The notes under the pieces are model-generated. The model was not told the origin of the DNA. It did no database searches and was given only the letters and a program-made list of their open reading frames with translations. The translations under genes and the position numbers were made by a program. Shown in pieces: positions 954 through 10,481 of a stretch of 64,000 nucleotides of DNA (position 1 is the first letter of the stretch; the number at the start of each line of letters is the position of its first letter). Origin of the DNA: Myxococcota bacterium. Its GTDB lineage: Bacteria; Myxococcota; B64-G9. The stretch spans positions 45,083 to 109,082 of the forward strand of contig JAKLGA010000009.1 of assembly GCA_022710975.1 (NCBI GenBank), in the 5' to 3' direction.

Positions 954-1154
954 TCAGGCGCTGCATTCGCTCGGAACGTCGGAGGCCTCCCCCTCCAGCC
1001 CCTCGATCTTCAGCGCGCCCTCTGCGCTCAGGGCGCCGCTGAGCACCTTGCCGTCGAGCTTCAGCTCGATGCGGGTGTCCTCCACCTTGAAGGTGCCCCT
1101 CTTCTCGTATGGGGTCATGGCGTCCTCGACGAACTCCTTGCCCTTCAGGACCAC
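954..1154 (-). CDS. small hypothetical protein
   Basis: 66-codon ORF with balanced composition (MTPYEKRGTFKVEDTRIELKLDGKVLSGALSAEGALKIEGLEG), co-directional and downstream of the decarboxylase gene. Frame stays open upstream of the GTG at 1154, so the true start is uncertain. Confidence 0.3.
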   Translation of the reverse strand: MVLKGKEFVEDAMTPYEKRGTFKVEDTRIELKLDGKVLSGALSAEGALKIEGLEGEASDVPSECSA

Positions 1155-1352
1155 CTTGCCGTCCTCGCTGAAGTCCAGCTCGAACAGCGGCCCGTAGGCG
1201 CCGGGGGCCGGGTGTTCCGCGCCGCGGCTTCCTTGCGCCCCGCCGCCGGCTCGCCGGCCCAGGCCGAGGCGGCCAGGGCCAGGCAGGTGGCGAGCGCGGC
1301 CGAGATCAGGGAGATTGGCCGGGTCGAGTTCGACGTGATCGGCCTCCTCGCT

Positions 1353-2810
1353 TCAGCGGCGTCGCAGGCGGCGCAGGAGTCCGGACACCTTCTCGAGCCT
1401 CGGCAGGGCCTTGAGCGCGAGCTGGGTCAGGCGATCGCCGGGCCTGCCCGCCTCGGCCCCCAGGTCGGGCGGGGTGCCCTCGGGGCCGTACATGGCCTCC
1501 AGCATCCGCAGCACGTTCTTCTTCACCATGCCCCGCAGCGGCACGTGGGCGACGAGTCCGTACATGGCCGCCTCCCCCTGGGTGGCCAGCTCGGGCCGGC
1601 CCTTGACCTCGGCCACGGCCGTGCGCAGATCCGCCAGGTACGCGTCCACCACCCCGGCGTGGGCCTGGGTGACCATGGCGTGCAGGCAGGCCGGGTGCTG
1701 CTGGCGATCGATGTGCCAGCCGCGCGCGGTCATGCGATCCCCGACCGCGTAGATGTTCACCTGGGGATCCCGGGCGCGGTAGGCGAAGATGGTGGCGTCG
1801 GGCGCTCCGAGCACCTCCAGCTCGGGGATGGCGGCGATCCCCTCGAGCAGCCGGCGGGTGGCGTCCAGCGCCCGGCCGTGGAGCTCGAGGTAGCCGCGCT
1901 CGCCGAGCGACTGCAGGGCGGCCCAGGCCGCGGCGTAGGCCCCGCCCGGGCGGGTGCCCAGGAGGCCGGGCGAGGCGAACACCCCGCCGCACCAGTCCGT
2001 GGTGGCGAAGAACTGGTGCTTCATCAGCTCCATGTCGCGGTACAGCAGCAGCGAGGCGCCCTTGGCCGCGTAGCCGTACTTGTGCACGTCGGCCGAGATC
2101 GAGCTCACCCCCGGCACGCGGAAGTCCCAGGCCGGGATCGGCCGGCCCAGCCGCTCGACGAACGGCAGCAGGAAGCCGCCCACGCAGGCGTCCACGTGCA
2201 GCGGCAGGCCCCTGGCCTGGCACAGCCCCGAGAGCTCCTCGATCCCGTCCACCACCCCGTAGGGGTAACAGGGCGCCGAGCCCACCACCAGGATGGTGCG
2301 CGCGGAGAGCATGCGCCGGACGGCCTTCACGTCCACGCGCATGTCGGCCCGGAGCGGGGCGCGCCGGAGCCTGAGGTCGAAGTACTCGGCCGCCTTGTCG
2401 AAGGCCACGTGCACCGACTCGGGCGCGATGACCACCGCCCGGCCCGGCAGGCGGAGCCGGCGCCTGGCCCGATCGCGGTAGGTCTTCATGGCCAGCAGGA
2501 TGCTCTCGGTCCCGCCCGAGGTGAGCAGCCCGACCGTGCCCGGCCCGCCGTGGAGCAGGCCGGCGCCCATCTGCACCACCTCGGTCTCCAGGCGCTTGAG
2601 GCTCTTGAAGGCCATGGGGTTCAGCCCGTTCTCGCTGAAAAACCGCCCGTAGGCCTCGCGCAGCAGCCGGGTGTGCTCCTCGCCCGCGTGGTAGACCAGG
2701 CTCCAGGTGTGCGCCCCGCGCCAGTCGGCGTCTCCCCGGCCCATGGCGTCCAGCTCGGCCAGCACCTCGGCGCGGGGCCGGCCCTCGGTCGGCAAGCTCA
2801 GGCGGGTCAT
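1353..2810 (-). CDS. PLP-dependent group II decarboxylase family protein, sphingosine-1-phosphate lyase-like
   Basis: 485 aa. Motif SISADVHKYGYAAKGASLLLY matches the lysine-containing SxDxHKYG(F/Y)AxKG signature of S1P lyase / group II decarboxylases. GGAGGG Shine-Dalgarno 7 nt upstream of ATG at 2810. Confidence 0.85.
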   Translation of the reverse strand: MTRLSLPTEGRPRAEVLAELDAMGRGDADWRGAHTWSLVYHAGEEHTRLLREAYGRFFSENGLNPMAFKSLKRLETEVVQMGAGLLHGGPGTVGLLTSGGTESILLAMKTYRDRARRRLRLPGRAVVIAPESVHVAFDKAAEYFDLRLRRAPLRADMRVDVKAVRRMLSARTILVVGSAPCYPYGVVDGIEELSGLCQARGLPLHVDACVGGFLLPFVERLGRPIPAWDFRVPGVSSISADVHKYGYAAKGASLLLYRDMELMKHQFFATTDWCGGVFASPGLLGTRPGGAYAAAWAALQSLGERGYLELHGRALDATRRLLEGIAAIPELEVLGAPDATIFAYRARDPQVNIYAVGDRMTARGWHIDRQQHPACLHAMVTQAHAGVVDAYLADLRTAVAEVKGRPELATQGEAAMYGLVAHVPLRGMVKKNVLRMLEAMYGPEGTPPDLGAEAGRPGDRLTQLALKALPRLEKVSGLLRRLRRR

Positions 2811-2823
2811 GCGCGATCCCTCC

Positions 2824-3981
2824 TCACGGGGTCCAGCCCCGGAGCGCGTAGGCCAGGCCGATGCCCAGGTAGTTGCCCACGGCGTAGCCGATGATGCCGG
2901 TGGTGATGCCGGCCGGGAGCAGCTCGGGGTTCTTCAGCCCGGCCGTGACCACCGGCACGAAGGGCGGGGAGCAGATGGCGGACACGTGGGTCACCAGGCA
3001 GGTATCCACGTCCAGCCGGGCCAGACGGCAGAGCAGCGCCTGCACCAGTAGCGAACCGAAGATCACCAGGGCGACGAAGCCGGCCAGCTCCCACTGCACC
3101 GTGACCAGGGAGTCCAGGCGCGCCTGGGTGCCCACCGCCAGGCAGAAGACCAGCAGGATGTAGAAGCCGAGCTGGAAGGTGCGCTGGATGCGGTGCAGCG
3201 CGGGCACGAGCGAGGCGGCGATGCCCAGCGTGGTGAGCGTCAGGATGGAGACGGCGGTGCGGGCGTCCGTGGACACCTGCTGGCCGGCCAGGAAGGCGAT
3301 GGCCATCATCCCGGCCGCCGCGAGCAGCGCCAAGGCCAGCCAGGCCGCCCGCCGTGGGCGCAGCATGTCCTGGAAGGCCGAGAGCGACTCCACCTCGAGG
3401 CCGGCCGCGTCGGCGCCAGCGCCGCGCGGCCGGTAGGCCCGGAGCAGGCCGAGCTTCAGGAACAGCCGCTGGGCCAGGGAGGCCATGAACAGGATGTACA
3501 CCAGCGAGACCACGGTGTCGTAGGTGTGGAACACGATGAAGGTGTCGTTGGGCACCTGCAGCGCCTTGGAGATGGCCGCCAGGTTGGGGGTGCCCCCGGT
3601 GTACACCCCAAAGCTCATGCCGGCGAGCTGCCAGGCGTCGGGCCGATCGCGCAGCAAGAGCCAGCCCGCCGCGGTGATCAGGCCCACCGCCAGCACGGCG
3701 AAGCCGAAGGCCAGCAGCGCCCGCCCCGCCGTGGGCACCCAGCGGCGCACGTTCGAGCTGAGCAGCAGCAGCGGCAACGCCAGCGCCACGGCCACGTCCT
3801 GCAGGGTGCCCAGCGCGGGTTTCAGGCCCGCCGGCGCCAGGCCGCTGTTGCCGACCGCGATGCCGATCAGGTAGCACAGGATGACCGCGCCCACCTTGCG
3901 GGCCAGGGTGAAGCGGGCGCACAGCCACAGCACCAGCGCGGGCGCCAGCAGGTAGGCCGCGAGCAGCAGGGCGATCGCCAA
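2824..3981 (-). CDS. integral membrane protein, DUF819-like
   Basis: 385 aa, strongly hydrophobic multi-pass protein. TTG start 4 nt after the stop of the upstream acylase gene. Assignment to DUF819 is from memory of the family, not a search. Confidence 0.65.
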   Translation of the reverse strand: MAIALLLAAYLLAPALVLWLCARFTLARKVGAVILCYLIGIAVGNSGLAPAGLKPALGTLQDVAVALALPLLLLSSNVRRWVPTAGRALLAFGFAVLAVGLITAAGWLLLRDRPDAWQLAGMSFGVYTGGTPNLAAISKALQVPNDTFIVFHTYDTVVSLVYILFMASLAQRLFLKLGLLRAYRPRGAGADAAGLEVESLSAFQDMLRPRRAAWLALALLAAAGMMAIAFLAGQQVSTDARTAVSILTLTTLGIAASLVPALHRIQRTFQLGFYILLVFCLAVGTQARLDSLVTVQWELAGFVALVIFGSLLVQALLCRLARLDVDTCLVTHVSAICSPPFVPVVTAGLKNPELLPAGITTGIIGYAVGNYLGIGLAYALRGWTP

Positions 3982-3985
3982 GGGC

Positions 3986-6517
3986 TCACTCTCCGCCCGG
4001 CGCCAGGGTCAGCACGCCGCGGGCGCGCTTGCCGAGCTCGCGCCAGTCCGAGAGCATGGGCACGTACTCCCCCCGCAGCCAGCGGGCGTGCTGGTCGGCG
4101 TAGTGGGGCGAGCCGGGCCAGCCCGAGGCGCCGGTGTCCAGGATCCACAGGCTGCGGCCGAGGTCGTTCAGGTCCGCCAGCATGCGGTGCACCGGCCCGG
4201 CCACCACCTTGTAGGGGTCGCGGCCGTCGCCGATGTCGAAGTGGGCCTTCCACACCGTGTCCAGCGCGCCCGGCATGGGCTGGCGGGGCAGGTTGACCAG
4301 CTCGGCCAGGGCCGCCTTGCCGCCGAAGGGGTGGCGCAGCTCGAGGTAGTGCACCCGGCCCCAGGCCCAGCCCGCGGGCGCCGGGCCGAGCCGCTCGCCC
4401 AGCTCGGCCACCGTCTTCTGGAAGGCCGCCTGCACCACCTCGCGCCGGGTCTCGCGCCGCGGGGTCGACAGATCGTCCCAGACCGGGTGCTCGGGCTCGA
4501 AGAACCACACGTCCATCATGTGGGTCGAGTAGCGCTGCTGCAGCACGAACTCGCGCTGGGCCTCGGGCAGCTCGTCGCTCAGGGCGGCCAGGCCGGCCTG
4601 GCGGTAGGTCTCGAAGAAGAGGGTCGGGGCCGCGGCCTCGGACCTGGCCTCGAGGTCCCAGGCGATCAGCAACCCCAGGGCCTCGTCCTCGGCCTCGCTG
4701 CGCGGGGTGAGGGCCAGGAGGTCCTCCAGCAGGCAGGGCAGCACGCGCTCGGCGCGCTTCACCTTCACGTCGCGCTGGATGCGGGCGAAGGTGCTGAGGT
4801 CGTGCTTCGGGGTGGCGCGCAGCAACTCGACGATGCGATCCAGGCGGTAGGAGGGTGCGCTGTCGACGTGGAAGGGCACGGTCGCCCGCGCGGGATCCCA
4901 GAGCAGGTTGTTGGCGTGGCCCACCAGGGCGTCGGCGCCGCCGGTGAGCGCGGGCAGCTCCTCCGGCGCGGCGAAGCGCTTCCACTGGTAGTCGTCCAGC
5001 CAGCCCGGGGCCGGGAAGGTGCCCAGGTGCCGCTCGCGCACGGGGATGCGCCCGCAGGCGAACAGCTCCACCCCGCCCTGCGCGTCGGCGGCGGTGTACA
5101 CGCTGGAGGGCGCGGCCACCCCGGCCAGCAGGGCGCGCAGCTCCGCGGCGCTCTTGGCCGACTGGCTGCGCCGCAGGCGCGCCAGGCTGTCCACCATGGA
5201 GCCCGGGTCCTGGTGCAGGGCCACGAGCGGGGCGCCCTGCGGCAGCTTGCCCGGGTACACGTCCTGGAGGATCGGCCCGTTGCGGCTGGCGCGCAGGACG
5301 AACTTGCGCGGCTGGAGCTCGTCGCCGTCCCGCACCAGGATCTCCACCTCGCGCCGGGCGAGCGGCTGGAAGCCCGCGGGGGTCTGCACCCGGCCCGGGT
5401 CGGCCGGATCGACGGACTCGAGGTAGAAGTCGACCACGTCCGCCACGGCCGAGGTCATGCCCCAGGCCACCTGCTGGTTGTGCCCGATCAGCACGTAGGG
5501 CAGGCCGGGCACGCTGATGCCGATCACGTCGAACTCCGGGCAGGCGAGCTGCATCTGCATCATCATCGAGGGCAGGAGGTGCGACAGGTGCGGGTCGCTG
5601 GCGAGCAGCGGCTTGCCCGAGCGGGTGCGGGCCCCGCCCACGGCGAAGGCGTTGCTGCCCAGTCCGAAGGCGCCGGGGGAGGGGAGCCAGGCGGCGTGCT
5701 CCGCCGGGCGCGGGTCCGCCGCGGGCGGCAGGGCGCCCGGGCCCGTGGGCAGGAGCGCGCGCACCTCCGGCGCGACGGCCGGCGGCAACGCCCGGAGCTC
5801 GCCCGTGAGCGGTACGCTCACCCCGCCGTCCCAGGGGCGCGAGGGGTACAGGGCCTCGGCCCGGTCCGGGCCCTGGTGCAGCGCGATCATCAGGCGCGAC
5901 AGCTCCTGGGACCAGTTGTGGGTCACGCTCCAGGCCGTCAGCCGGCCCACGGCGAACGTGTCGGACGGCCGCCAGGGCTCGGGCGTGAGGCCCAGCAGGC
6001 GGTGCTCCAGGGGCGTCTGGTGGGCCAGGGCCGCGTTCACCCCGTCGGCGTATGCCTGGAGCAGCGCGCCCGCCTCCTCGTCCACCGCGGCCGCGTCCGC
6101 CTCGGCCGCCTCGTCGAGGCCCCAGCCGCGCATGGCCAGGTCGAACTCCACCGTGGTGCTGCCGAGCAGCGGCTGCTCGCCGACCAGCGCGCTCACCCGG
6201 CCGCGGGCGATGCGCCGGATCATGTCCATCTCGAAGAAGCGTTCGCGGGCCTGCACGTAGCCGGTGGCCCGCGCCAGGTCGCGCTCGCTCCTGGCCCGCA
6301 CGTGCGGCACGCCCTGGGGATCGAGCAGCACCTCCACCGGCGCCTCCAGGCCCGGCAGGCGCAGCGTCTCGGTGTCCGGGCGCGGGTAGTCGGGGCTCAT
6401 CTGGTAGCCCAGGAAGGCGGACAGGGCGCAGCTCGCGGACCCGAGCGAGGCCAGGCCCAGCAGGGCCGAGGCGGCGAGCAGGCGGAGCGAGCGCGTGGCG
6501 CGTGCGGTCGGGGACAT
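3986..6517 (-). CDS. penicillin acylase family Ntn-hydrolase (acyl-homoserine-lactone acylase-like), secreted
   Basis: 843 aa. N-terminal signal peptide (LLAASALLGLASLGSASC). Internal GSNAFAVGG motif typical of the beta-subunit N-terminal Ser nucleophile of penicillin/AHL acylases. Length typical of the family. Confidence 0.85.
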   Translation of the reverse strand: MSPTARATRSLRLLAASALLGLASLGSASCALSAFLGYQMSPDYPRPDTETLRLPGLEAPVEVLLDPQGVPHVRARSERDLARATGYVQARERFFEMDMIRRIARGRVSALVGEQPLLGSTTVEFDLAMRGWGLDEAAEADAAAVDEEAGALLQAYADGVNAALAHQTPLEHRLLGLTPEPWRPSDTFAVGRLTAWSVTHNWSQELSRLMIALHQGPDRAEALYPSRPWDGGVSVPLTGELRALPPAVAPEVRALLPTGPGALPPAADPRPAEHAAWLPSPGAFGLGSNAFAVGGARTRSGKPLLASDPHLSHLLPSMMMQMQLACPEFDVIGISVPGLPYVLIGHNQQVAWGMTSAVADVVDFYLESVDPADPGRVQTPAGFQPLARREVEILVRDGDELQPRKFVLRASRNGPILQDVYPGKLPQGAPLVALHQDPGSMVDSLARLRRSQSAKSAAELRALLAGVAAPSSVYTAADAQGGVELFACGRIPVRERHLGTFPAPGWLDDYQWKRFAAPEELPALTGGADALVGHANNLLWDPARATVPFHVDSAPSYRLDRIVELLRATPKHDLSTFARIQRDVKVKRAERVLPCLLEDLLALTPRSEAEDEALGLLIAWDLEARSEAAAPTLFFETYRQAGLAALSDELPEAQREFVLQQRYSTHMMDVWFFEPEHPVWDDLSTPRRETRREVVQAAFQKTVAELGERLGPAPAGWAWGRVHYLELRHPFGGKAALAELVNLPRQPMPGALDTVWKAHFDIGDGRDPYKVVAGPVHRMLADLNDLGRSLWILDTGASGWPGSPHYADQHARWLRGEYVPMLSDWRELGKRARGVLTLAPGGE

Positions 6518-6541
6518 GTGCGTGGCCTCCCTTCCCCCGGG

Positions 6542-7765
6542 TCAGAAGAGCTTGAACGGGCCGCGGAGGCCGACGCTCAGCGAATCCGTGGCCCGGCTGT
6601 TGCGCCCGGGGATCCAGGACAGGTTGCTGTAGGTGAGCGAGAGCTGCAGCGGCGCCCCCACCCGGAGCAGCGACACCACCAGCTCGGCGGTCAGCCGGTT
6701 CTTGTAGCCCGGCCGCCACAGCTTCTCCTGGGTCCAGTCCCAGAGCTCCGACTCGGACTCCCAGTCGGACTGGAACAGCCAGGTGAAGGCGTAGCCCACG
6801 CTCAGGCTGACGAGCGGAGGCAGGCTGTCCGGGTCGGCCACCTGCCCGCTCAGCCAGGTCTCGAGCACCGGCCCGCGCCAGGCCACCACGTCCAGCACGA
6901 GCTGGAAGCCGAGGAAGTCACCCGGGTCCAGCGAGTAGCGCTCCCCGGTGTAGGGCGCCAGGTCCAGGATGAGCGGGTTCTTGCGGCCCGTGGGCGCGTC
7001 GTAGGTGTGCTCGAACAGCGCCTCGTAGAAGAGATCCAGGCCCACGGTCAGGCGCTCGTCGAGCTCGCGCGGGCGGTAGTCCAGGGCCAGGTGGAGCCCG
7101 AGCTCCCCCTGGGCGTGCAGCTCCCAGCTCGTGGTGCCCGAGGCGACGATCTCCTCGGGATCCTTGGGCCGACCCGTGGGCAGCGCCCCCTGCACGGTCA
7201 GCGCCAGCCCCACGCCCTGATCGGTGAGCGCCGGCAGGTAGTCGGACAGGCGGTAGCGCAGCCCGAGGATGATGTCGGCCAGCACTCCGCGGTTGCCCAC
7301 CCAGGTGCCGGGCCGGGGCTGGCCCATGCTCTGGGCCCACTCCCAGAAGTCCTCCTCGGTGTAGGTCCGCCCCAGCCACCACATGTAGTCCCCGGGCACC
7401 CAGGACAGGCGCGGCTCCACCGTGGTCCGCAGCACCACCGGCACGCCCAGCCCGAGGGTCAGGTTGTCCAGGATGCCGTACTGCAGCTTGGCGATCAGCA
7501 CCTGGTAGGTCACCGAGGCGTCCGGGATGATGATGCCCTGCAGCCCGCCCCCCGGCTCGTAGCGGTAGAGCTTGTCGAGGAGCTGGGTGCGCCCGCCCTC
7601 GTCGTCGTAGGCGTTCGTCAACCAGGAGTGCAGGTAGGCCACGTCGACCAGGAAGGTCTCGGCCGGCAGCGTCTCGGTGGGCCGCCCGGCCCGGGCCGGC
7701 GGCGCGGCGGCCAGCAGGCCCGCGGCGAGCAGCGCCGCGGCGGGCAGCGCGTGGCGCGGGCTCAT
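6542..7765 (-). CDS. outer-membrane beta-barrel protein (predicted)
   Basis: 407 aa. Signal peptide MSPRHALPAAALLAAGLLAAAPPARAG. Alternating hydrophobic/aromatic strands and C-terminal ...GPFKLF (terminal Phe typical of OMPs). ATG at 7765 overlaps the TGA stop of the upstream gene (ATGA). Only the 3' 408 codons of track ORF 6542..9697 are used. Confidence 0.6.
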   Translation of the reverse strand: MSPRHALPAAALLAAGLLAAAPPARAGRPTETLPAETFLVDVAYLHSWLTNAYDDEGGRTQLLDKLYRYEPGGGLQGIIIPDASVTYQVLIAKLQYGILDNLTLGLGVPVVLRTTVEPRLSWVPGDYMWWLGRTYTEEDFWEWAQSMGQPRPGTWVGNRGVLADIILGLRYRLSDYLPALTDQGVGLALTVQGALPTGRPKDPEEIVASGTTSWELHAQGELGLHLALDYRPRELDERLTVGLDLFYEALFEHTYDAPTGRKNPLILDLAPYTGERYSLDPGDFLGFQLVLDVVAWRGPVLETWLSGQVADPDSLPPLVSLSVGYAFTWLFQSDWESESELWDWTQEKLWRPGYKNRLTAELVVSLLRVGAPLQLSLTYSNLSWIPGRNSRATDSLSVGLRGPFKLF

Positions 7766-9657
7766 CGGGCCGCCTCCCCGGGAGGCGCGCGCAGGTCGAG
7801 GGTGCGGAACGCTCCGTCCGTGGCGGGCACCTGGCCGAGGGCGTAGTGCAGCAGCCCCGCGGCCGGCTCCATGATCGCGGCGTTCATGCTGTCGCGCGAG
7901 TCCACCAGCTCCGGGACCGCCAGCAGCTCCTCGGCCGCGGCCGCGTCCAGGCCGCCCAGCCGCGCCCGCACGGCCTGGCCCAGCAGGTGGCCGGAGCGCA
8001 CCGAACGGAAGTAGTAGTTGGTCCAGTAGCGCTGGGGGCGCAGCGTCCAGTTCAGCAGGCGCAGGTCGAGATCCTCCGGGTTCAGCCGGAAGTGGACGTT
8101 CAGCCGCAGATCGTCCGGGCCCTCGCCGCCCAGGCGCCGGCCGTGCGCGTCGAAGCCGGCGGGCTCCTGGGACTCGGGCCGCAGCACGCGGAAGCCCGTG
8201 CCGTCCCCGAGGATGTCGCTGTCGGCCTCGACCAGGGCGAGGTCGCCCCCCGCGTCCGCGAGCAGGAAGCACCAGCCGAAGGTGTAGGGCGCCCCCCGCA
8301 GGCGCTCGAGCGCCTCGGCCACGCTGGTCGCGTGGGTGAGGATGTCGCGGCCGAGCAGCCCCATGGGGACGCCGCTGGACACGAGCCTGGCCAGGATGAG
8401 GTGCTCCCGGAGCTCGGCCACCAGCGGGTTGTCCAGGCTGTCGCACGGGTTGGCCGCGAAGGCCAGGCCCGCCTCGTTCATCCCCGAGTAGCCGAACACC
8501 GCGCCGGTCCAGCCCAGGGTGACGTGCGCCAGTCCGTCGTCCGGCCGGTGCACCAGCACCGCGGTGTGCTTGTGGGCGGTGTTCGAGTCCAGCAGGCTGA
8601 AGTGGTGCGCGAGCAGCGGGTCCCCGCCGGCCGTGGCCGGGCCCCGGGCGGCGAAACCGAACGGTCCGGGTTGGCTGCGCCCGTCGTCGAAGGACTCCTC
8701 CGGGACCTCCCAGGGCGCCTTGCCGAAGCCCGCCGTGGTGAAGCCGAAGCGCACCTCGCGGGCCATGTTGGCCTTGGCCGGGGGCGGATCGGTGATCCAG
8801 GCGGTGTCGCCCGCGGACACGATCACGGAGGTGTAGGCCGCGGGCGGGAAGCCGCCGGGCGGCCGCAGGGTGACCTCGAGCCCCGCGCCCGCCTGGCCGC
8901 AGGAGCCCAGGCCCACGCCCTCGTCCCCGGGCACGAAGGAGGCCCCCGGGATCTGCAGCCGGACCTGGTGCGGATCGACCCCGTCCTCGTCCTCCAGGCA
9001 CAGCCGCAGGCGGGCGCCGGTGGGGATCTCCACCCGGGCCACGTAGGGGGCGGGCTCGAACTCCATGGCGCTCTCGCCCGGCTCGTCGAGCTCGCCGTCG
9101 CCGTCGTTGTCGGCCCCGTCCGCCTCGGCGCCCTCGAAGGTGACGCGGGTGAGGTGGGGGGAGGACTGGTCGCGCAGGAAGTAGGTGATGGCCCGGAAGG
9201 CCACCAGGGTGTCCATGAAGGTGTTGAGGATCAGCACGGTCTCGTAGGGCACGTCCGCCCCGTCGGCCACCCCGCGCAGCTCCTCGCGGTATTCGGCCGG
9301 GATGGTGGCCTCGAGGCTCTGCGCGGACTCCAGGAAGATGAGGTAGGAGAACTGGCCGTCGTCGTAGCGCGCGTCCTGGTACTCGAGCAGGAAGTCCGCG
9401 ATGCTCGGCCGCTCGCGGTTCAGGTAGGGCAGGATCGAGGTGGACAGGAGCTGGGTGTAGAGCGAGCGCAGCTTGCTGGACACCGCGGCCCCGTGCTGGA
9501 AGCCGCGCTCGTAGGGCGTGCCCGTGAGCTCGAGGAGCTCCACGTGGCTGGGCTCCTGGGCTGCCTCGCAGCCGATCGGGCCGCCAGCCGGGCCGACCAG
9601 GAGACCCACCAGCAGGAGGGCGAACCTCGGGGCGATCATGGCGCGGAACCGGAGCAT
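7762..9657 (-). CDS. peptidase C45 / acyl-CoA:6-aminopenicillanic-acid acyltransferase-like Ntn-hydrolase family protein, secreted
   Basis: Motifs LTGTPYERGFQHG and FGYSGMNEAGLAFAAN resemble the C45 (isopenicillin-N acyltransferase-like) family. Signal peptide MLRFRAMIAPRFALLLVGLLVG. Acidic insertion EADGADNDGDGELDEPGE. Start chosen at 9657; an alternative ATG lies at 9639. Confidence 0.65.
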   Translation of the reverse strand: MLRFRAMIAPRFALLLVGLLVGPAGGPIGCEAAQEPSHVELLELTGTPYERGFQHGAAVSSKLRSLYTQLLSTSILPYLNRERPSIADFLLEYQDARYDDGQFSYLIFLESAQSLEATIPAEYREELRGVADGADVPYETVLILNTFMDTLVAFRAITYFLRDQSSPHLTRVTFEGAEADGADNDGDGELDEPGESAMEFEPAPYVARVEIPTGARLRLCLEDEDGVDPHQVRLQIPGASFVPGDEGVGLGSCGQAGAGLEVTLRPPGGFPPAAYTSVIVSAGDTAWITDPPPAKANMAREVRFGFTTAGFGKAPWEVPEESFDDGRSQPGPFGFAARGPATAGGDPLLAHHFSLLDSNTAHKHTAVLVHRPDDGLAHVTLGWTGAVFGYSGMNEAGLAFAANPCDSLDNPLVAELREHLILARLVSSGVPMGLLGRDILTHATSVAEALERLRGAPYTFGWCFLLADAGGDLALVEADSDILGDGTGFRVLRPESQEPAGFDAHGRRLGGEGPDDLRLNVHFRLNPEDLDLRLLNWTLRPQRYWTNYYFRSVRSGHLLGQAVRARLGGLDAAAAEELLAVPELVDSRDSMNAAIMEPAAGLLHYALGQVPATDGAFRTLDLRAPPGEAAR

Positions 9658-9831: not shown

Positions 9832-10086
9832 ATGTGCCGCGAGGACAAGCTGCTCAAGCGGATCACGGTCGACCCGCGCATCTTCGGCGGCAAGCCCATC
9901 ATCCGTGGCCGCCGCCTAGCCGTCGAGCACGTGTTGGGCATGCTGGCCGCGGGTGACGAGGCGGACACCATCCTGGAGGGCTACCCCTGGATGGAGCGCG
10001 AGGACATCCAGGCTTGCCTGGTCTATGCCCGACGCCTGGTGGGCCACGAGCGCGTCGAGGCCGTTCGAATCCGGACACGGGGATGA
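9832..10086 (+). CDS. DUF433 domain protein (antitoxin-like)
   Basis: 84 aa: RITVDPRIFGGKPIIRGRRLAVEHVLGMLAAGDEADTILEGYPWMEREDIQACLVYA matches the DUF433 fold signature. Only the 3' end of track ORF 7846..10086 is real; the rest is antisense to the C45 gene. Confidence 0.75.
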   Translation: MCREDKLLKRITVDPRIFGGKPIIRGRRLAVEHVLGMLAAGDEADTILEGYPWMEREDIQACLVYARRLVGHERVEAVRIRTRG

Positions 10087-10481
10087 AGGTCCTGCTAGAT
10101 TCCTGCGTGTGGGGCGGGACGGCCAAGGCCCTGCGCTTGGCTGGCCACGATGTGGTCTGGGCGGGAGATTGGCCCAAGGACCCCGGTGATGACGAGATCC
10201 TGCGCTGGGCGCATCGGCGCGGCCGTGTGCTGGTGACCCTGGACAAGGACTTCGGTGAGCTCGCGGTGGTCCATCGGCAGGCCCACGCGGGCATCCTCCG
10301 CCTGGTGGGCTTCGCCGCCCGCCAGCAGGCGATCATGTGCCTGCACGTGCTCGAGCGCTGTGCGGTCGACCTCGCGACCGGCGCGCTGGTGACGGCGGAC
10401 TCCACGGGCCGCCTGCGCATCCGCGCCGCGGAGAGGCCAGGCGAGCGAGCTCCCGCGACCCGCCGTCCCCGCCGCCGCTGA
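10083..10481 (+). CDS. DUF5615-like (PIN-like) protein, putative toxin partner of DUF433
   Basis: 132 aa starting MKVLLDSCVWGG...DDEILRWAHRRGRVLVTLDKDF. ATG at 10083 overlaps the TGA stop of the DUF433 gene (ATGA). DUF433/DUF5615 are known co-occurring pairs. Confidence 0.7.
   Translation: MKVLLDSCVWGGTAKALRLAGHDVVWAGDWPKDPGDDEILRWAHRRGRVLVTLDKDFGELAVVHRQAHAGILRLVGFAARQQAIMCLHVLERCAVDLATGALVTADSTGRLRIRAAERPGERAPATRRPRRR

Follow-up and report, generated by a model that had tools for sequence, protein, structure and literature searches.

The window analysed in this study is the whole 64-kb stretch (64,000 nucleotides) of a 215-kb Myxococcota contig, whose source DNA is the digester metagenome JGI 3300009776. 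Close to its start, five co-directional and tightly packed genes lie on the minus strand. They encode a lipoprotein with the fold of the C45/IAT family, an outer-membrane beta-barrel, an acylase of the penicillin-amidase family, an inner-membrane protein of family DUF819, and a pyridoxal 5'-phosphate (PLP) enzyme resembling sphingosine-1-phosphate lyase (SPL). These genes, the proteins predicted from them and their relatives in other genomes are the subject of this study; their coordinates are collected in Table 1.

The five-gene unit and its proteins

The region contains about 72% G+C, and long spurious open reading frames (ORFs) are therefore frequent. The G+C content at third codon positions (GC3) is 0.96-0.99 in the five real frames versus 0.68-0.75 in the overlapping antisense long ORFs, and an independent gene call on the source contig returned the same five minus-strand genes. 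Coordinates, GC3 and gene call thus agree on the packed, co-directional arrangement described by the initial annotation, and the junctions it had listed (the overlap of the first two genes and the spacers in front of the DUF819 and lyase genes) can all be read in the sequence. The small ORF that it had counted as a sixth member, with gaps of -4 to 24 nt throughout, does not fit this description: it is separated from the lyase gene by 198 nt and is not conserved. A tblastn search over related loci (numbered L001 and so on) matches it in the near-identical contigs L001 and L002 only, and profile searches of Pfam and NCBIfam gave no family match. Judged by gene spacing only, the five genes would be co-transcribed as one operon. 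A promoter and terminator scan yielded no promoter-like site and one terminator-like site, which lies on the other strand and is at chance level.

Table 1. Features of the five-gene unit, and ceramidase homologues in related loci. Positions refer to the window unless a locus number is given.
Feature	Position	Strand	Evidence or remark
C45/IAT-fold lipoprotein, 631 aa	7762-9657	-	GC3 0.96; PF03417; NCBIfam C45_proenzyme; AlphaFold2 (AF2) model
ATGA stop/start overlap, C45-like gene/barrel gene	7762-7765	-	read from sequence
Outer-membrane beta-barrel, 407 aa	6542-7765	-	AF2 model; signal peptide; C-terminal aromatic residue
24-nt gap with GGGAGG, barrel gene/acylase gene	6518-6541	-	read from sequence
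Penicillin-amidase-family N-terminal nucleophile (Ntn) hydrolase, lipoprotein, 843 aa	3986-6517	-	PF01804; Ser288 (GSNAF)
4-nt gap before TTG start of DUF819 gene	3982-3985	-	read from sequence
DUF819 inner-membrane secondary transporter, 385 aa, TTG start	2824-3981	-	PF05684
13-nt spacer with GGAGGG Shine-Dalgarno motif, before lyase gene	2811-2823	-	read from sequence
SPL-like PLP enzyme, cytoplasmic, 485 aa, without signal peptide	1353-2810	-	PDB matches; PF00282
66-aa ORF, probably outside the unit	954-1154	-	198 nt downstream of lyase gene; no family match
PF04734 homologue	L089 4317-5660	-	beside SPL-C45-barrel-acylase cluster
PF04734 homologue	L037 3060-4346		beside SPL-C45-barrel-acylase cluster
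PF04734 homologue	L034 20007-21194		beside SPL-C45-barrel-acylase cluster

SPL (EC 4.1.2.27) converts sphingosine 1-phosphate (S1P) to phosphoethanolamine and hexadecenal. The PLP enzyme of the window matches PF00282 (Pyridoxal_deC, 1.8e-21) and carries the PLP-enzyme motif SISADVHKYGYAAKG. Its PDB matches place it nearest to SPL, as first proposed, rather than among glutamate or diaminobutyrate decarboxylases: the Symbiobacterium enzyme StSPL is found at 3e-119 and human SPL at 1e-109, versus 3e-28 for the glutamate decarboxylase GAD and 3e-27 for MfnA. The solved SPLs as a group (StSPL 3MAD, human SGPL1 4Q6R, yeast Dpl1p, and the Burkholderia and Legionella enzymes) are matched at 1e-60 to 1e-119 over nearly the full length. 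Unlike them, the window lyase has no N-terminal membrane segment, and it is encoded beside a DUF819 transporter rather than being a host-directed effector. It keeps the StSPL residues Lys311 (which binds PLP), Lys317, Tyr105, Asn126, His201, Asp274, His310 and Tyr482; K311, Y105, K317 and Y482 are also conserved in 120 of 120 homologues. The phosphate head-group site of StSPL is formed by Y105, N126, H129 and S353 (PMC10243590). Compared with StSPL, this pocket is changed in the window lyase at H129 (to N), S353 (to T) and A103 (to L); in the numbering of the window lyase, the first two are N64 and T286. All 120 nearest homologues share the change, with Asn (116) or Ser (4) at position 129, Thr at position 353 (120) and Leu at position 103, while human SPL, like StSPL, has His129. 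The subfamily is large: of 8,000 candidates that were scored, 7,946 match at E<=1e-20.

The barrel protein has no match in Pfam or NCBIfam, even at E<=10, so that membership of the COG4313 profile family (Phenol_MetA_deg) is not detectable. It carries a signal peptide and ends in KLF, with an aromatic last residue. In the AF2 model (pLDDT, the predicted local distance difference test score, 79.7) it forms a 12-stranded barrel with long conserved loops. Residues 68-77 and 122-158 are among the conserved loop segments. Its best fold match is the COG4313 outer-membrane channels, which it also resembles in being 12-stranded. Model and fold match together support the assignment of this unannotated protein as an outer-membrane beta-barrel, which the initial annotation had made. 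Identity to the COG4313 channel Pput2725 (4RL8) and to FapF is low (19% and 12%), and the window barrel differs from both in its long, highly conserved extra loops and in belonging to a small, isolated sequence family. A profile search against 1.84 billion representative proteins gave 73 matches at E<=1e-3, which marks the family as tiny and closed; within it, conservation is high, with 63 invariant columns in 18 sequences. COG4313 contains SphA, the sphingosine-induced uptake channel of P. aeruginosa (PMC4493636, PMC3900636). From the model we infer a candidate channel for hydrophobic molecules of COG4313 type.

The lipoprotein encoded upstream of the barrel matches PF03417 (AAT; 3.5e-12, 46.9 bits against a cut-off of 23.2) and the NCBIfam family C45_proenzyme (NF040521; 124 bits against a cut-off of 85). 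Its AF2 model (pLDDT 89.7) shows the Ntn alpha-beta-beta-alpha fold with both the alpha- and the beta-subunit part, and it matches IAT, NAAA and acid ceramidase, with strong fold similarity to the latter two. A profile of the family run against the PDB finds acid ceramidase, IAT and NAAA only, weakly and through the alpha-subunit helix. Likewise, local profile matches to the C89 enzymes acid ceramidase and NAAA are weak (E 0.003-0.04) and do not make the protein a C89 member by sequence. The alpha-subunit motifs GTPYERG and EExxGIADGA...LNT are kept. In contrast to IAT, acid ceramidase and NAAA, the protein is a lipoprotein of twice the usual length, without the nucleophile, and with an insert of about 165 residues (about residues 165-330) that bears an invariant acidic loop, DGxDNDGDGxxDE. 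Behind its signal peptide lies a conserved lipobox cysteine, Cys30, the only conserved Cys of the family.

Members of the C45/IAT family are defined by an autoproteolytic Cys nucleophile at the start of a core beta-strand. In the model this strand comprises residues 333-339, and its start lies within residues 329-341 (QPGPFGFAARGPA), which are free of Cys, Ser and Thr. At the expected nucleophile site, the columns of the family vary (S44/P13/A6/T4 and I/L/F/T/V in 69 sequences), where the register is that of the profile match and the secondary structure of the model, not of a coordinate superposition. Because the residues at the strand start include none of the three and the columns are variable, the family-defining Cys nucleophile is absent. 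The C45-like protein has no conserved catalytic nucleophile, and a canonical hydrolase role is therefore unlikely. Of the two secreted Ntn hydrolases in the initial annotation, both are exported lipoproteins with a conserved lipobox Cys30, but the C45-like one departs from the description in this respect; the autoproteolytic Cys that structure prediction was expected to locate is not at the nucleophile position. T146 of the conserved LNT was considered as a Thr nucleophile and rejected, as LNT falls within the alpha-subunit in the profile-to-PDB alignment, at IAT residues 88-90. Nothing useful was retrieved from the PDB with a profile built on residues 322-480, which cover the start of the beta-subunit. 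When hmmsearch and hhalign were run against an IAT sequence, the alpha-subunit alone aligned confidently (beta-part probability 6%), and none of the candidate registers sets Cys, Ser or Thr at the nucleophile site of the window protein. The protein would be an example of an Ntn-hydrolase fold minus its nucleophile, probably re-used as the binding partner of the channel.

The second exported lipoprotein is a penicillin-acylase-family Ntn hydrolase, in agreement with its first assignment. It matches PF01804 (Penicil_amidase) at 2.8e-184 over the full profile and carries the GSNAF motif with nucleophile Ser288; the PDB beta-chains of glutaryl-7-ACA acylase and PvdQ begin at this residue. All of 30 orthologues share S288, N289, H310 (His-beta23) and the lipobox C30. 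A stretch that may be removed autoproteolytically as a spacer separates the alpha-like part (residues 60-240) from S288. Best PDB matches are D-succinylase (2e-51) and glutaryl-7-ACA acylase. With these enzymes and with PvdQ/MacQ the window acylase shares the full PF01804 domain, the Ser nucleophile, the following Asn and His-beta23; it differs from the characterised acylases in being lipid-anchored, and is an orthologue of none.

The DUF819 protein was named correctly from the start: residues 13-380 match positions 6-376 of the 379 positions of PF05684 (2.2e-36), i.e., the full length. Proteins of this family, which is placed in the CPA/AT clan, adopt a CitS-like re-entrant fold; the nearest relatives of the family within the clan are the glutamate:Na+ symporter, aspartate:alanine exchanger and 2-hydroxycarboxylate transporter families (PMC8396727).

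Linkage in related loci and clues to the substrate

A scan with the barrel alignment, restricted to one genome per species, yielded 80 loci, nearly all from Myxococcota-type metagenome-assembled genomes (MAGs). The C45 gene lies immediately upstream of the barrel gene in all 70 loci with enough upstream sequence. In 46 of 50 related loci, its stop codon shares nucleotides with an ATG or GTG start in the frame of the barrel gene (ATGA/GTGA). By their arrangement, the two form an obligate pair with translational coupling. Directly after the pair, 27 of 67 loci have an orthologous acylase gene. In 43 loci the barrel gene is flanked on each side by 6 kb of sequence or more; the fetched flanks of 18 of them include the acylase, those of 14 the lyase and those of 10 DUF819. 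At least four arrangements occur: SPL-DUF819-C45-barrel-acylase, which is the commonest, C45-barrel-acylase-DUF819-SPL as in the window, C45-barrel-acylase-x-SPL, and a divergent one. The expectation that the cluster holds together in related genomes is thus confirmed in part: the genes recur together, in permuted orders, but only the C45-barrel pair is universal. Because the genes stay linked in permuted orders, their association points to functional coupling more than to inherited synteny, and as a pattern of gene neighbourhoods it is strong evidence of a functional link.

This association extends beyond the barrel-bearing loci. Among eight lyase homologues from other lineages, four adjoin DUF819 (three in MAGs of Bradymonadales, Spirochaetes and Cryosericum, the fourth in a 4.8-Mb contig), one lies in an SPL-C45-barrel-acylase cluster, and three are unlinked. 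The Bradymonadales MAG combines the DUF819-lyase pair with a 52%-identical acylase and TauE. In the ORF clustering of related loci, no other gene family recurs in more than nine loci, and the remaining flanking genes (nucleotidyltransferase, GH4, PHP, RdgC, NDH-2-like oxidoreductase, radical SAM) have no shared theme.

Several less frequent neighbours were observed in these loci. A second acylase subfamily, 32-33% identical to the window acylase, occupies the same slot downstream of the barrel in L012 (13094-15586), L017 (11151-13712), L034 (11206-13776) and L037 (11236-13770). An unannotated lipoprotein family of about 407 aa lies just upstream of a TetR gene and the lyase gene in eight loci (L089 5930-7153 on the plus strand, L037, L034, L041, L042, L012, L017, and L032). 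In four loci, the gene after that of the acylase or the barrel encodes a Cys-rich lipoprotein (about 205 aa). A TauE/SafE (TSUP) permease of about 245 aa is present in L008 (1503-2240), L009, L026, L029, L033, L062, and L083. In a single locus, L043 (1518-4778), two calcineurin-like metallophosphoesterases, one of them purple-acid-phosphatase-like, are encoded directly upstream of SPL-DUF819-C45-barrel-acylase. In one lineage (L029 2313-5803, L030 and L031) genes for a thiamine diphosphate (ThDP) enzyme, a short-chain dehydrogenase/reductase (SDR) and an acyl-CoA-dehydrogenase-like protein flank the C45-barrel pair; the ThDP enzyme is acetolactate-synthase-like, 2-hydroxyacyl-CoA-lyase-like or Xsc-like, with all matches under cut-off.

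Four independent observations point to sphingoid lipids as the substrate: the family of the lyase, the COG4313 fold of the barrel, the fold of the C45-like lipoprotein, which is that of lysosomal N-acyl-lipid amidases, and a flanking ceramidase homologue. The latter, a 447-aa protein of the neutral/alkaline ceramidase family PF04734, is encoded beside the SPL-C45-barrel-acylase cluster in three loci (L089, L037, and L034; Table 1). The initial annotation had suggested that the cluster imports or processes an N-acylated lipid or signal; its ceramide-like option has gained independent support, while nothing specific was found for N-acyl-homoserine lactones (AHLs) or N-acyl amino acids. That the lyase would release an aldehyde is supported by gene neighbourhood. 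In the Cryosericum MAG (L090 3128-8292), the DUF819-lyase pair is followed directly by genes for an aldehyde:ferredoxin oxidoreductase and a 4Fe-4S ferredoxin, and a 46%-identical oxidoreductase of this kind is encoded in L015 (1016-2971), 3 kb from the lyase gene. TetR-type regulators, which are usual in substrate-induced catabolic operons, flank the lyase gene in several loci.

A putative envelope-spanning route and its alternatives

With moderate confidence, we propose that the operon provides a route across the whole envelope by which an N-acylated long-chain amino-alcohol lipid, of ceramide or sphingolipid-like type, is taken up and broken down. Gene order, protein families, folds and linkage were observed; every biochemical step is our inference from them. 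The C45-like lipoprotein and the 12-stranded barrel, made 1:1 by translational coupling, would be paired at the outer membrane, where the barrel would act as a COG4313-type channel and the nucleophile-less lipoprotein would most likely bind and present the lipid without hydrolysing it. In the periplasm, the anchored penicillin-amidase-family enzyme, with its intact Ser-Asn-His set, would strip off the N-acyl chain. The DUF819 protein, a secondary transporter of CPA/AT type, would then move the freed amphipathic base over the inner membrane. Finally, the cytoplasmic SPL-like enzyme would cut the C2-C3 bond in a retro-aldol reaction, and the resulting fatty aldehyde and C2 amine would enter general metabolism. 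The predicted compartments (two lipoproteins, a barrel with signal peptide, a polytopic membrane protein, and one protein without signal peptide) support such a path from the envelope to the cytoplasm.

Several points weigh against this proposal. The related sequences are all MAGs or metagenome contigs, and in more than half of the long-flank loci the C45-barrel pair stands alone. Transport may run in either direction, as uptake or as export; the nucleophile is absent from the C45-like protein, whose role is a guess; and the specificity of the acylase is not readable from its sequence. Those CPA/AT families nearest to DUF819 carry small charged solutes rather than long-chain lipids. The lyase subfamily has lost the phosphate-binding His129, and no sphingoid-base kinase is linked in any locus examined. 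With its head-group pocket changed and a linked kinase lacking, the lyase may act on something other than S1P itself.

A catabolic operon of the envelope for a hydrophobic substrate is a kind of system already known, with several components here being uncharacterised. The nearest known system is the sphingosine-responsive SphR regulon of P. aeruginosa, which comprises sphA for a COG4313 channel, cerN for a neutral ceramidase, and sphBCD (PMC3900636, PMC5150637, PMC4493636). Both systems would combine a 12-stranded outer-membrane channel for hydrophobic molecules with ceramide-type deacylation and the handling of sphingoid bases; the barrel of the window has the COG4313 fold, and a homologue of the cerN family occurs in three related loci only. 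In contrast to SphA and its COG4313 relatives, the window barrel cannot be placed in the Pfam family by sequence and is about 130 residues longer. Furthermore, it has an obligate partner in the C45-fold lipoprotein, the deacylase is of the penicillin-amidase family, and a DUF819 transporter and an SPL-like lyase are added. The regulator SphR is of AraC type, whereas the annotated regulators beside the lyase are of TetR type; neither an AraC-type regulator nor sphBCD-like genes were noticed among the annotated recurrent neighbours and flanks, in which no direct search for them was made. The relation to the SphR regulon is accordingly one of analogy, not of membership.

Among the alternatives, the same machinery might turn over or remodel the sphingolipids of the cell's own outer membrane, with the C45-barrel pair extracting the lipid and the acylase, transporter and lyase recycling it. 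All components do face the cell's own envelope, the hosts belong to the Myxococcota, a phylum that reportedly makes sphingolipids, and the very high conservation of the barrel fits a housekeeping interaction. However, genes for sphingolipid synthesis are absent from the 64-kb window and the flanks examined; the TetR regulators by the lyase are typical of substrate-induced catabolism; and DUF819-lyase pairs occur in MAGs of Spirochaetes and Cryosericum, which are not known as sphingolipid makers. We regard turnover of the cell's own lipids as unlikely. The absence of a linked kinase and the anion pocket altered at three positions in 120 of 120 nearest homologues would both be expected if the substrate were a sulfonolipid (N-acyl capnine) or another lipid with an anionic group at C1 of its base. 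The acylase would free capnine or a base 1-phosphate, DUF819 would import it, and the lyase would cleave it without a kinase, capnine giving taurine and a fatty aldehyde. The TauE/TSUP permease within or beside the cluster in seven loci fits this idea, but the functions of TSUP transporters are diverse, genes of taurine metabolism were not observed, and a literature search found no account of capnine cleavage. The ThDP enzyme of L029-L031 was tried as a sulfoacetaldehyde acetyltransferase and rejected (248 bits against a cut-off of 676), which also counts against capnine. Taken together, such a substrate appears improbable.

The obligate and coupled C45-barrel pairing, which persists even in many loci without acylase, lyase and DUF819, allows another view of the pair: the barrel could be a translocator or anchor that displays the C45-like lipoprotein on the surface, in the manner of split autotransporters or of export by FapF, with the remaining three genes as a separate module. 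The best fold match of the barrel is a COG4313 channel and not a translocator, the lipoprotein is a folded protein of 600 aa and the barrel has only 12 strands; in addition, a catabolic role of the whole operon would still be compatible with surface display. We consider this arrangement slightly more doubtful than the capnine-type substrate. Least probable of the alternatives, and in our estimate very improbable, is the deacylation of an N-acyl signal or antibiotic (AHL quorum quenching, or lipopeptide or siderophore maturation) with an unrelated lyase. The penicillin-amidase family does include the AHL acylases PvdQ and MacQ, and there are weak NCBIfam and PDB matches to PvdQ, but the NCBIfam score reaches only 88 bits where the cut-off is 950, the flanks contain no nonribosomal peptide synthetase, siderophore or LuxR/LuxI genes, and it would be left unexplained why, in several phyla, acylase orthologues are repeatedly linked with the lyase and DUF819.

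Returning to the proposed uptake and catabolism of a sphingolipid-like lipid, a more specific version would dispense with a kinase altogether and consist of parts that lack characterised counterparts. The lipoprotein would be a lipid receptor for a new barrel family, and the widespread SPL-like subfamily, which is paired with DUF819 in several phyla, with its remodelled anion pocket, would act on a substrate other than S1P, either capnine or an unphosphorylated sphingoid base. This version is speculative and rather unlikely; if true, Myxococcota and other bacteria could use other organisms' sphingolipids or sulfonolipids as food. Bacterial sphingolipid degradation is little characterised beyond the ceramidase and SphA of P. 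aeruginosa and a few host-directed S1P lyases. Literature searches that covered DUF819, COG4313, myxobacterial S1P lyases and the degradation of capnine turned up no account of the cluster, in line with the initial annotation, which knew of no characterised operon of this composition. The general proposal, if correct, would give a first physiological context to the large bacterial SPL-like subfamily, to the DUF819 family and to the new barrel family. It bears on the recycling of sphingolipids or related lipids by Myxococcota, many of which are predators, and by other environmental bacteria, and it supplies candidate enzymes for the deacylation of ceramides or sulfonolipids as well as candidate lyases of new specificity.

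Further genes of the window

Between the C45-like gene and BipA, a divergent DUF433/DUF5615 (Mut7-C-like) gene pair of toxin-antitoxin-like type is located on the plus strand (9832-10481); no homologue of it appeared in the ORF clustering of related loci, in which no dedicated search for it was made. Further along the window (14339-57842), where neither sphingolipid synthesis nor lipid-kinase genes are present, we found genes for a class-III aminotransferase, prolyl oligopeptidase, isoamylase, C25 peptidase, Ada and three major facilitator superfamily (MFS) transporters, together with a cyclic nucleotide monophosphate (cNMP)-binding Ser/Thr kinase, GH106 and GH31 proteins, saccharopine dehydrogenase and a metallophosphoesterase.

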